DNA of 64,000 nt, from assembly GCA_036555485.1 (NCBI GenBank), contig DATBLG010000005.1, positions 902-64,901 on the forward strand. Direction: 5' to 3'. The DNA is from Gemmatimonadales bacterium. Its GTDB lineage: Bacteria; Gemmatimonadota; Gemmatimonadetes; Gemmatimonadales; GWC2-71-9. The position numbers were made by a program, and so were the translations under genes. Of this stretch, positions 49,429-52,368 are shown piece after piece. The notes beneath the pieces were generated by a model. The model ran no database searches. It worked only from the letters and a program-made list of their open reading frames with translations, and was not told the origin of the DNA. How positions within the stretch are numbered: the stretch's first letter is position 1; every line of letters begins with the position of its first letter.

Positions 49429-50619
49429 GTGAGCGCGCACCTCGCGGAATGGCTCAGCCTCGCGCTGCGCTGGATCCACATCATCACCGGCGTGTCGTGG
49501 ATCGGCACATCATTCTATTTCAACTGGCTGAATGGACGGATTCGACCGCCGGACGCCCCCGAGCCCGGCGTCACCGGCGAGCTCTGGTCGGTGCATGGCG
49601 GCGGGTTTTACCGCGTCGTGAAATACAGCGTCGCGCCCGAGCGCCTGCCGCGCACGCTGCACTGGTTCAAGTGGGAGGCGTACGCCACCTGGCTTTCCGG
49701 CGCGTCGCTGCTCGTGCTCCTGTACTATTTCGGCGCGCGGGTGAACCTGCTCGATCCCGGCGTCTCCTCGATCGCCCCCGGCGCGGCGGTCGCCGTCAGC
49801 ATCGGCACGATCCTCGTCGCCTGGCTCGTCTACGATGTGCTGTGTCGCTCGCCGGCGGGGTATCGGCCCGTTGTGCTGGCGACGCTAGGCCTGGTACTCG
49901 TCACGGCGCTTGGCTATGGCCTGGCGCGCGTATTCAGTGCTCGCGCCGCCTATTTGCACGTCGGTGTCGCCCTCGGCACGATCATGGCGGCGAACGTGTT
50001 CCGGGTGATCATCCCGGCGCAACGGGAAATGGTGGATGCGTTGGCGGCGGGGGGCGAGCCGGACGCGGCACGCGGCCGTCAGGCGGCGCTGCGTTCGTTG
50101 CACAACAACTATCTGACCCTACCCGTGCTGTTCGTGATGGTGAGCGGCCACTACCCCGCGACGTACGGCAGCGCCTGGGGCTGGGCCATCCTCGCGGGAT
50201 TGTTCGTCGTCGGCGTCCTGACGCGCCACTGGTTCAATCTGCGCAACGCCGGGATTCGCAACGCCTGGCTGCTCCCCGCGGCTGTGGTGGGACTCATCGC
50301 GTTGGCGCTCGTGACGGCGCCGCGCTCCAGCGGTATGGCCTCACCGGACGGCGCCGTGTCGTCGTTCGCCGACGTGCGTATCATCATCGCGCGGCGCTGC
50401 GCTCCGTGTCACTCCGCAGCGCCCACCTTCCCGGGCGTCACTGCGCCACCGGCCGGGGTGGCGTTTGACACGCCGGAGCAGATTCGCGTCCGCGCCTCGC
50501 GCATCGCCGAGCGGGTGGTCGCCCGGCAGACGATGCCACTCGGCAACGTCACGGGGATCACTCCGGAGGAGCGGGATCTTCTCGGGCGGTGGATTCAAGC
50601 GGGGGCTCCGCTCCGGTGA
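49429..50619 (+). CDS. puuD: Membrane-bound urate hydroxylase PuuD (cytochrome c-containing)
   Basis: 396 aa. The N-terminus WIHIITGVSWIGTSFYFNWL is typical of PuuD. It has several TM helices and a C-terminal CAPCH heme c motif. Confidence 0.8.
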   Translation: MSAHLAEWLSLALRWIHIITGVSWIGTSFYFNWLNGRIRPPDAPEPGVTGELWSVHGGGFYRVVKYSVAPERLPRTLHWFKWEAYATWLSGASLLVLLYYFGARVNLLDPGVSSIAPGAAVAVSIGTILVAWLVYDVLCRSPAGYRPVVLATLGLVLVTALGYGLARVFSARAAYLHVGVALGTIMAANVFRVIIPAQREMVDALAAGGEPDAARGRQAALRSLHNNYLTLPVLFVMVSGHYPATYGSAWGWAILAGLFVVGVLTRHWFNLRNAGIRNAWLLPAAVVGLIALALVTAPRSSGMASPDGAVSSFADVRIIIARRCAPCHSAAPTFPGVTAPPAGVAFDTPEQIRVRASRIAERVVARQTMPLGNVTGITPEERDLLGRWIQAGAPLR

Positions 50620-50640
50620 CCTGCAGCAACAGACTCCCAG

Positions 50641-50942
50641 GGGTGGGCTAACCCCGGGGCCATGCCCCGGGGTTCAGGGATTGGCACACGTATGCCAGGT
50701 CGTGAATTGCCTAGGGTGGGTTAACCCCGGGGCCGTGCCACGGGGTTCAGGGCAAGCACACGTATACCCTGGCCGTGAATTGCCACAGGTGGGTTAAGCC
50801 CGGGGCGTTGCCCCTGGGTTCAGGGAATGTCACACGTGACCCCAGGACGTGAATTGCTGTGGGTGGGTAACCACGGGCTAAGCCCCGGTGTGGGAATGGC
50901 ACACATTGAACCCCGGGCCGTGGGCCCGGGGTTAACCCACCC
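50641..50942. repeat. Tandem array of four units of about 73 bp, each with a GC-rich hairpin; the last unit ends in an inverted copy of the unit start
   Basis: Unit starts (gggtggg, with aggtggg at the third) are at 50641, 50714, 50787 and 50861. Each unit contains a hairpin such as aaccccgggg-ccatg-ccccggggtt (50650-50674), followed by cacacgt...gtgaattgc. The array closes with gttaacccaccc (50931-50942), the reverse complement of the unit start. Confidence 0.85.
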
Positions 50943-50959
50943 GGACAACGTCGACGAGC

Positions 50960-51350
50960 TCAGCCACCGCCGCGGCCACCTCCTTCCCGAATGCCGATCC
51001 GAATCGCCAGTGCACCGACGGGTCCCATTATGGCTGCGCCCACTATCGGGGTCCATGGCAACTGGGTCCCCCATTCGGCGGGCGGAAAGAGTGTTAAGAC
51101 AGTGAGGAAAGCGTATGGGAGTATTGCGACGAATCCCACCAGCATCGCCCCGGCAGCGTGCCGGCACAGTGGCAACAGGAGCCCCACGATTCCGCCTGCA
51201 ACAATTCCACCCTAGGTAGCCACCGATTAGGGCGATATAGGAAGTGTTGTACTCCTGCAGTAGTTCTGGCCCTCTGACGAGAACGAGCAGCGTCGCCAAT
51301 ACCGAAATGACTAGTGCGAACCAGAGACCCCAAGTGAGTCCCGTTTTCAT
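50960..51350 (-). pseudogene. Small 4-TM membrane protein gene interrupted by a 1-nt frameshift (or assembly error), in a low-GC patch
   Basis: From ATG 51350 the translation is MKTGLTWGLWFALVISVLATLLVL...YIALIGGYL. It continues sensibly only after a frame change near 51209-51216, as GGIVAGGIVGLLLPL...AIMGPVGALAIRIGIREGGGRGGG*, with the stop at 50960. The total length of 391 nt is not a multiple of 3. Confidence 0.55.
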
Positions 51351-51408
51351 GTTTGATCCGAGTGAGCCCATTGGACCCAAGCCCCTCTTTTCCTCCAAAC
51401 GGACTAGT

Positions 51409-52368
51409 TCACACCTCAGCCACGTCGAACAACACCTTCATCGTCCCCGGCCGCTGCGCATGGTCGAACGCATCGAGCGCTCGCTCCAGTGGGTAATGCG
51501 CCTGCACCAGCGGTAGCACGTCCACCTTCTGTTCAGCAAGCACGGCGAGTGCCTTTGGAAACGGGCCGCAGCGCGACCCGATGATCGTGAGCTCGTGCAC
51601 CACGATCGCGGATGCGTCGAGCGTCAACTGGTCGGCGTACGTGCTCTTCATCACGAGCGTGCCGCGGGGACGCAGCGCCCGCTGGGCGAGGCCGAAGCCG
51701 AGGTGATTGCCGGTGCATTCGACCGCGATGTCGAATGAGCCCGCGGGGATCGTCTCAGCCGCGGTTGACGCAATCCCGCGCTCGGTGAGCAGGGTGAGCT
51801 TTGGTCCGTGGCGGCCGACCACCAGGAGGTCGCAGTCGGTGAGCGCCAGCGTTTGCGCCACGAGCTGCCCCAGCTTTCCATCCCCGACGACGAGCACCCG
51901 GTCCCCGGGCGCGATGTGGACCTGCTCCTGGATCTCGAGTGCCGCGGCGAGCGGCTCGGTAAAAACCGCCGCGTCCTCGGATACACCGTCCGGAACCAGA
52001 TGGAGGTTTTGGAGCGGCAGCGTGAGATACTCGGCGAACGCGCCGTGCCGGTTCACGATGCCAAGTACCGTGCGACGCTCGCAGTGCGTGCGTCGGCCGG
52101 CTCGGCAGGGACCGCATGCGCCGCACGTCGCGTTGATCTCACCCACCACGCGCCGGCCCATCAGCGCGTCCGGACCGCGCTCCACCACGCCGACGAACTC
52201 GTGGCCCAGCACCCCGGCGTAGGGATAGTAGCCGCGCGCCAACTCGACGTCGGTGTTGCAGATGCCGGCACGGAGCACGCGCACCAGCGCTTCGTCCGCC
52301 GGTGGCTCCGGCACCGGCACGCTATGGCGGAGCCGGAGCTGGCCTCCCTCGAGCCAGACGGCCTTCAC
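51409..52368 (-). CDS. Zinc-dependent medium-chain alcohol dehydrogenase family protein
   Basis: 319 aa matching MDR motifs (GICNTDVE, GHEFVG, CGACGPC structural-zinc loop, VVGDGKLG). Confidence 0.85.
   Translation of the reverse strand: MKAVWLEGGQLRLRHSVPVPEPPADEALVRVLRAGICNTDVELARGYYPYAGVLGHEFVGVVERGPDALMGRRVVGEINATCGACGPCRAGRRTHCERRTVLGIVNRHGAFAEYLTLPLQNLHLVPDGVSEDAAVFTEPLAAALEIQEQVHIAPGDRVLVVGDGKLGQLVAQTLALTDCDLLVVGRHGPKLTLLTERGIASTAAETIPAGSFDIAVECTGNHLGFGLAQRALRPRGTLVMKSTYADQLTLDASAIVVHELTIIGSRCGPFPKALAVLAEQKVDVLPLVQAHYPLERALDAFDHAQRPGTMKVLFDVAEV

Follow-up and report, generated by a model that had tools for sequence, protein, structure and literature searches.

Genomic setting of the array

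We studied an intergenic array of repeats in a 64,000-nt stretch of DNA (the window) from a Gemmatimonadota MAG (2.79 Mb in 179 contigs, 74% complete). The array (50641-50942) lies downstream of a puuD-type urate oxidase gene (49429-50619, plus strand; PF06181, E 1.4e-121), whose stop is located 21 nt before it. It is followed by a patch of lower GC content that holds a disrupted small membrane-protein frame (50943-51408) and is unmatched in 60 relatives. Beyond this patch, domain searches identify a convergent gene for a Zn-dependent alcohol dehydrogenase (Zn-ADH; 51409-52368, minus strand). That is, the spacing of 789 bp between puuD and the ADH gene is made up of 21 nt, the 302-bp array and the 466-bp lower-GC patch, with a GC content of 53-60% at about 51100-51400. 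The PF06181 match, the Zn-ADH gene and the GC profile confirm the setting given in the original prediction, i.e., an array after puuD, between convergent genes and beside a low-GC patch.

Next, we compared this junction with that of 11 relatives from the same genus. In all of them, the puuD stop is only about 10-45 bp away from the convergent gene, which encodes a Zn-ADH in 8/11 cases and is another gene in the remaining 3/11. Since the array is absent from the puuD junction of these 11 relatives, we regard it as an insertion specific to the species lineage of the window. It adjoins foreign-looking DNA and is part of the 789-bp stretch that is missing in the relatives, such that it might conceivably mark an integration site. 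An exact-protein look-up of PuuD in other assemblies returned no record.

Structure of the array

The array (302 bp) consists of three direct units of 73, 73 and 74 bp and a rearranged fourth unit of 82 bp. Tandem Repeats Finder reports a repeat of period 73 at 50637-50888 (3.5 copies, 77% matches, score 272). The repeat finder returns four copies that are spaced by 73, 73 and 74, as well as an inverted pair formed by 50641-50676 and 50907-50942 (36 nt, 89% complementary). Together, the two programs reproduce the four tandem hairpin units of about 73 bp that had been predicted, the last of which closes on an inverted unit start. The 19-nt word GGGTGGGTTAACCCCGGGG, which covers head and arm, occurs four times in the window when up to 3 mismatches are allowed, compared to 0.02 occurrences expected from shuffles.

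Each unit combines a 35-nt module with a 38-nt linker (38-39 nt in units 1-3). The module starts with the head GGGTGGG, which contains GTGG, followed by TT and AACCCCGGGGC-NNN-GCCCCGGGGTT, i.e., a GC hairpin of 11 bp with a 3-nt loop. The linker of units 1-3 reads AGGG..CACACGT..CGTGAATTGC. The layout originally described, i.e., GGGTGGGTTAA, a hairpin and CAGGG..CACACGT..CGTGAATTGC, therefore holds for units 1-3, except that the hairpin was given as 10 bp with an N5 loop instead of an 11-bp stem with a loop of 3 nt.

Module 1 (50641-50675, plus strand) carries the GGGTGGG head and forms a perfect 11-bp stem (AACCCCGGGGC-CAT-GCCCCGGGGTT). It is followed by linker 1 (50676-50713, plus strand), which shows the above linker pattern and is found at this site only. 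Module 2 (50714-50748, plus strand) has the exact consensus head and pairs at 10 of 11 stem positions with one G.A mismatch, and its linker 2 (50749-50786, plus strand) shares 76% identity with linker 1. In module 3 (50787-50821, plus strand), 9 of 11 positions are paired and the two mismatches are uncompensated; linker 3 (50822-50860, plus strand) is 72-77% identical to linkers 1 and 2. The fourth unit is composed of a degenerate forward module 4a (50861-50894, plus strand), in which TTAA lacks one base and the hairpin is largely broken, 13 nt of the linker start (the short remnant AATGGCACACATT at 50895-50907, plus strand) and an inverted module 4b (50908-50942, minus strand). In the latter, all 11 stem positions are paired again, with G-C changed to C-G at one of them.

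The array boundaries are exact, i.e., it starts with a module head and ends with an inverted one, such that the heads of modules 1 and 4b point outward. Overall, the repeats are 83-91% identical to each other. The inner copies are decaying, as visible from 77% unit identity and broken stems, and the two end copies with their outward-facing heads have remained perfect.

A GT[AG]G guide sequence located 5' of the hairpin foot is characteristic of REPs (PMC6006769), for which published palindromes have stems of 5-13 bp and loops of 2-20 nt (PMC3733652). The modules are within this range, given the 11-bp stem and 3-nt loop of modules 1 and 4b and the 10/11 and 9/11 pairs of modules 2 and 3.

The geometry of a 35-nt repeat and a 38-nt spacer also resembles that of CRISPR, and the array abuts DNA that is missing in the relatives. 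We therefore considered whether the array is CRISPR-like, a satellite or a dedicated site of attachment for the low-GC insert next to it, all of which we judge to be extremely improbable. The CRISPR reading is rejected because the spacers are homologous, i.e., 72-77% identical to each other. Furthermore, the repeat flanks a transposase gene (see below) and not cas genes, and neither the low-GC patch nor its junction has a second copy in the 60 relatives.

Beside the array, we made some observations on the patch itself. Its membrane-protein frame is encoded on the minus strand, with an ATG at 51350 and the N-terminus MKTGLTWGLWFALVISVLATLLVLV. A metatranscriptome contig of run X12 joins 51184 to 51389 via 9 other letters, which points to a strain variant without the 204 nt of lowest GC content. 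The patch is bracketed by a 9-bp direct repeat CTCAGCCAC at 50959-50967 and 51415-51423. If this were a target duplication, the ADH gene would originally have run into module 4b and ended at the TAA of its head (..RVG*). The pair may equally be a chance event, as about one such 9-mer pair is expected per 800 nt.

To assess the reality of the array, we used metagenome data. Unitigs from independent soil and rhizosphere metagenomes tile the array with 0-2 differences; for four soil metagenomes, the number of differences is 0-1. Since these data sets are independent, the array is not an assembly artefact and belongs to the DNA of a recurring soil organism. When reads were mapped at lower identity, pieces of the array were found in three further samples from other studies at low depth; an empty-site junction of related strains was not seen in the metagenomes by this approach. 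In runs X1-X4, the unitig depth over the consensus module (window positions 50632-50685) is 3-10x that of the flanks, and a 255-nt unitig shows the consensus module in another context. By these two observations, the community holds further module copies, possibly within the missing quarter of the genome.

Conservation and folding of the hairpin

Next, we investigated whether the hairpin is conserved among related modules. We therefore collected 105 distinct modules from about 20 related genomes based on the head and the 5' arm only, i.e., the 3' arm was free to vary. For the 11-bp stem, 88.5% of the cells are paired, compared to at most 59% in slid controls. Double changes were counted in 39 stem cells versus 13 +/- 2.9 in shuffles, and 0/500 shuffles reached as high a count. 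At two positions of the stem, G-C is repeatedly swapped for C-G. Within the head, the columns G3, T4, G5 and G6 are each at least 90% conserved; this GTGG tag is 3 nt away from the strict stem and directly adjoins the extended stem in double-headed copies.

These statistics support a constraint on the hairpin across the module family, which would be maintained via compensatory changes, and fall short of proof because the module copies are related by descent. The compensatory changes and the selection on structure proposed in the original prediction are thus supported on the level of the family (39 vs. 13 +/- 2.9). They are not supported within the array, where the G-C to C-G change of module 4b is the only compensatory one.

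With regard to folding, unit 1 as RNA has a predicted energy of -38.9 kcal/mol (z -2.8), and the whole array as ssDNA shows a z-score of -6.35. For the RNAs of units 2 and 3, z-scores of +0.6 and +0.4 show no gain in stability over shuffled sequence. The last 82-bp unit folds as a REP doublet with -51.6 kcal/mol (z -4.25); another copy of this doublet was not found in the genome. Using permissive thresholds, the best Rfam matches of the array score 15-19 bits, i.e., they are noise when related to the gathering scores of 70-100, and the suggested check for a structured RNA thus came back empty. The reading of the array as a structured small RNA is rejected given its absence from relatives and the decay of its inner units.

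The folding results also bear on the question whether the array is kept mainly as a regulatory device, e.g., as a bidirectional terminator/insulator or as a 3'-end mRNA stabiliser that acts between puuD and the ADH/molybdenum-hydroxylase operon. It is placed between convergent genes, and its hairpins are strong, as reflected by the z-scores of unit 1 RNA (-2.8) and of the array as ssDNA (-6.35). Low-depth metatranscriptome contigs, which carry no strand or 3'-end information, cover 50759-50940 and 50872-51072. In addition, REPs are reported to terminate transcription or to stabilise mRNA elsewhere (PMC3733652, PMC6006769). On the other hand, the array is missing at the puuD junction of the 11 genus relatives, the terminator scan did not find a U-tract terminator on either strand, and units 2 and 3 fold like shuffles, with the inner stems decaying. 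Given this, we consider a mainly regulatory role unlikely. The description of the array as non-coding, hairpin-based and repeated is upheld.

Distribution of the module

Within the own genome, a census finds the module only in the window array and at C81:19414-20215, i.e., about 12 modules at 2 loci. Among 401 genomes of the phylum, 33 carry the module, and nearly all of them belong to the window's own family; a control with the reversed pattern is near zero. Most of the relatives have between 1 and 15 copies. Genome G034 carries 35 copies, among which there are solo modules and double-headed palindromes as well as inverted pairs and tandem runs of short length. Copies that are dispersed occur as solo hairpins and not as LE+RE pairs.

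For 43 modules, we assessed the placement relative to genes based on a crude GC3-based gene call, since the longest stop-to-stop frame is uninformative at 67% GC. Here, 20/43 are fully outside of genes compared to a non-coding fraction of 17%, i.e., the enrichment is only moderate.

In contrast to the module, the linker is unique to the window site, both with regard to the own genome and the metagenome collection. The search that had been proposed for the unit in the rest of the genome and in relatives thus recovers the module at C81 and in relatives. Matches of the linker pattern CACACGT N9-10 CGTGAATTGC in metagenomes (n=54) are chance hits, as none has a REP module nearby. One such chance match (L116, 1-420) is on an unrelated low-GC contig with its own 158-bp tandem intergenic repeat, which contains several hairpins.

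The Y1 transposase locus

At the second locus of the genome (C81:19414-20215; L028 5414-6220), two reverse modules are followed by an ORF of 136 aa and three forward modules. The ORF (L028:5542-5952) encodes a Y1 (HuH) transposase, which aligns to positions 3-121 of 121 of PF01797 (E 7.6e-16, 58.8 bits). It scores 55.9 bits against the NCBIfam model IS200 (NF033573), which is marginal given the cut-off of 55, and 45 bits against REP_Tyr_transpos, for which the cut-off is 80. All 13/13 Y1 orthologues share the motifs DHVH, RW[CGA]RGYY and Y---Q (Y[VL]xRQ), with YVSRQ in the window genome. When searched against the PDB, the profile of the Y1 family matches only IS200/IS605 TnpA (ISDra2 5e-13, IS608 1e-12), and E. 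coli TnpA-REP is unmatched at E <= 10. That is, Y1 shows the motifs and HMM matches of IS200/IS605 TnpA (class 1). An assignment to the RAYT / TnpA-REP enzymes (class 2, Y---NP) failed on motif, NCBIfam score and PDB profile.

This layout is shared by 8 orthologous loci (L028 and 7 further ones), where the gene start is preceded at a distance of 10-30 nt by a reverse module and the 3' end of the gene coincides with the beginning of a forward module. The flanking modules are thus inverted, i.e., the head with the 5' guide is on one strand before the gene and on the other strand after it. In addition, pairs of minus and plus modules about 440 nt apart mark such REPtrons in several genera of the 401-genome sample. 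Among the genomes with a close Y1 orthologue, 13/14 also carry the module.

The locus is fixed, with a recQ-like gene on one side and an acyl-CoA dehydrogenase gene on the other, in the window genome (G000) as well as in G017, G023, G001, G014, G021 and, as a pseudogene, in G018. A short remnant of the Y1 gene is found between the same neighbours in G005, and the site is empty in G016 and G008. The closest relative (G022; L191 750-1500, C28) shows a degenerate REP relic beside recQ and, where the Y1 gene would be, encodes an exported protein (about 140 aa); intact modules were not found elsewhere in its genome. The neighbour proteins are 79-96% identical among the relatives, compared to 53-77% for Y1. 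There is one Y1 gene of this type per genome. A collection-wide scan for the transposase resulted in only one match, which is a remnant in a Gemmatimonadota MAG.

Given the class of the enzyme, we evaluated whether Y1 could be an ordinary IS200/IS605-type IS with the array units as its non-autonomous miniature derivatives (MITE/PATE-like). The motifs (DHVH, Y---Q), the NCBIfam score and the PDB profile matches, all of the IS200 class, are in line with this. The behaviour of the locus is not: Y1 is present in one copy per genome, its syntenic position is fixed throughout the genus, its flanking guides are on opposite strands, while those of LE and RE are on the same strand in IS200/IS605 (PMC6006769), and the dispersed copies are solo hairpins instead of LE+RE pairs. 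We thus discarded Y1 as a mobile multi-copy IS200/IS605 element, and find the derivation of the array units from such an element highly improbable.

The Y1 locus also features a tandem repeat of 94 bp (L028 5941-6162; G000:C81:19940-20161; 2.4 copies, 96% identity) right after the gene. Each unit opens with a REP module, followed by a linker that is unrelated to that of the window. This seems to be another, younger array that is built like that of the window. Here, the stop codon of Y1 is supplied by the head of the right-hand REP (L028 5941-5952), where CGG GTG GGT TAA is read as RVG*. The same RVG* C-terminus of Y1 is found in G017 and G018.

Further observations concern individual loci. In L065 (G018:C190), the Y1 pseudogene has an in-frame TGA and has lost its N-terminal part, and REPs are still present on both sides. 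L063 and L064 (G014 and G021) are the most divergent of the orthologous REPtrons, with 53-56% identity of Y1. Their hairpin is unchanged, and GGTCGTG/GCGCGTG takes the place of the GGGTGGG head. This head change may reflect a co-variation of enzyme and guide sequence. Finally, the window genome encodes a distant Y1 paralogue (C141:43976-44347, 35% identical). Its flanks (L190 608-660 / 1052-1104) are inverted repeats of 53 nt, 74% complementary, with different small hairpins, i.e., the paralogue and its flanks may form a separate TIR/REP-type system within the same genome.

Comparison with known repeat systems

We compared the array and the Y1 locus with REP families tagged by GT[AG]G (Di Nocera et al. 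2013, PMC3733652; literature of Nunvar, Bertels and Ton-Hoang). Both share a short GC-rich palindrome, one end of which bears an unpaired GTGG tag. This palindrome is found singly, in double-headed form, as inverted pairs and in tandem clusters together with flanking DNA. They also have in common a cognate Y1 gene flanked by inverted copies as well as a lineage-specific sequence. Differences are the host phylum, the low copy number, the mainly head-to-tail (i.e., rarer) arrangement and the distance of 3 nt between the tag and the foot of the strict stem. With regard to the host, the 2013 survey reports REPs of GTAG type from Proteobacteria, Cyanobacteria, Chloroflexi and the PVC group, and Gemmatimonadota are not listed (PMC3733652).

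The BIMEs of E. coli are likewise intergenic REP clusters with conserved linkers, which are often found after the last gene of an operon. They differ in that Y- and Z-type REPs alternate in inverted orientation and that their linkers are defined and serve as binding sites for IHF or gyrase. Here, only a single REP type is present, modules 1-4a are in direct orientation and 4b alone is inverted. With one REP type in mostly direct orientation, the array is not a BIME of the E. coli type.

When compared to the REPINs and RAYTs of Pseudomonas (Bertels & Rainey 2011, PMC3116915), the outer modules similarly form an inverted pair with heads that point outward, the last 82-bp unit corresponds to a REP doublet and the transposase is a vertically inherited single-copy gene. 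In contrast to REPINs, the outer arms are 230 nt apart and the space in between is filled with decayed copies instead of a short spacer. Furthermore, a population of identical doublets is missing and the transposase is not a group 2/3 RAYT. The array is thus only loosely a REPIN.

On the level of the enzyme, Y1 and the TnpA-Y1 of class 1 (IS200/IS605) share the HuH motif DHVH, Y---Q, a length of about 135 aa and the full-length PF01797 alignment (PMC6006769). Y1 nevertheless behaves RAYT-like, i.e., it is a single-copy gene at a fixed locus with inverted REP flanks and guides on opposite strands. Low-copy and un-IS-like enzymes are also known from subclass 1.2 and class 3 of TnpA-Y1 (Quentin et al. 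2018, PMC6006769). However, subclass 1.2 is described without REPs and with the motif Y---Q--HH (PMC6006769), compared to Y---Q---H here. The structures of class 3 are atypical and CnGA-footed (PMC6006769), while the Y1 clade studied here has canonical GTGG-footed hairpins.

Discussion

The module has the structure that defines a REP, i.e., a short hairpin preceded on its 5' side by a GT[AG]G guide, and it flanks a Y1 gene in the arrangement of a REPtron. The array is of the type in which a REP singleton is repeated in tandem together with its flanking DNA. Taken together, the array is very likely a REP cluster, whose repeat family is private to one family of Gemmatimonadota and whose cognate enzyme is the REP-flanked, single-copy Y1. 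The original interpretation is thereby partly supported. The array is structured and repeated, yet of the REP/BIME kind that had been named as the ordinary alternative. In kind, if not by a match to E. coli BIMEs, it belongs to the REP/BIME or MITE families that had been listed as counter-evidence, as its GTGG-tagged palindrome flanks Y1 and is scattered in relatives.

Concerning its origin, a REP, or an inverted REP pair, would have been placed in the short convergent spacer by Y1 acting on single-stranded hairpin DNA. The unit of REP and 38-nt flank would then have been multiplied locally. Either the enzyme may have cut out unit-length single-stranded circles and reinserted them at successive REPs on the same strand, or the 35-nt direct repeats may have undergone unequal recombination or slippage. 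Afterwards, the inner copies would have decayed, with the two outer, outward-facing copies staying perfect. If the neighbouring genes are affected, e.g., via hairpins at the 3' end of the puuD transcript or of the convergent one, this would be a side effect and not the reason for the array.

Large REP clusters are known to arise from local amplification of a REP with adjacent DNA (PMC3733652). Such an amplification would fit here because the 38-nt linker is unique to the site and the 94-bp array has a different linker. No direct trace of a movement of the 73-bp unit itself is seen, as its linker occurs at one site only. Based on unit identities of 77% and 96%, respectively, the window array appears to be older than the 94-bp array.

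The following points speak against the REP reading. First, the copy number is low for a REP family, i.e., about 12 modules at 2 loci in a MAG that is 74% complete. Second, Y1 is not a canonical RAYT, since it shows Y---Q and not Y---NP. Third, REPs in head-to-tail tandem are less common than other arrangements among the families published so far (PMC3733652).

Beyond the classification as a REP cluster, we tentatively propose, as a possible yet rather doubtful extension, that the Y1 clade is an independent domestication of an IS200-class enzyme (class 1, Y---Q) into a REPtron with GTGG-footed REPs, which has remained fixed between recQ and the acyl-CoA dehydrogenase gene while a Gemmatimonadota genus radiated. 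The head-to-tail arrays of 73-bp and 94-bp units would then grow by excision and reinsertion of single-stranded circles at the REP cleavage sites. If true, REP/RAYT-like systems would have evolved by a second route in the Y1 clade.

For annotation, the REP reading explains an odd intergenic array as ordinary mobile-repeat biology, such that neither a new RNA nor a CRISPR-like system needs to be invoked. It extends the REP/REPtron systems tagged by GT[AG]G to Gemmatimonadota. The family is a tractable case, since it has few copies, its transposase locus is fixed and relatives show empty as well as relic sites. It could serve to study how REP clusters grow and decay and whether IS200-class enzymes can be domesticated in a RAYT-like manner.
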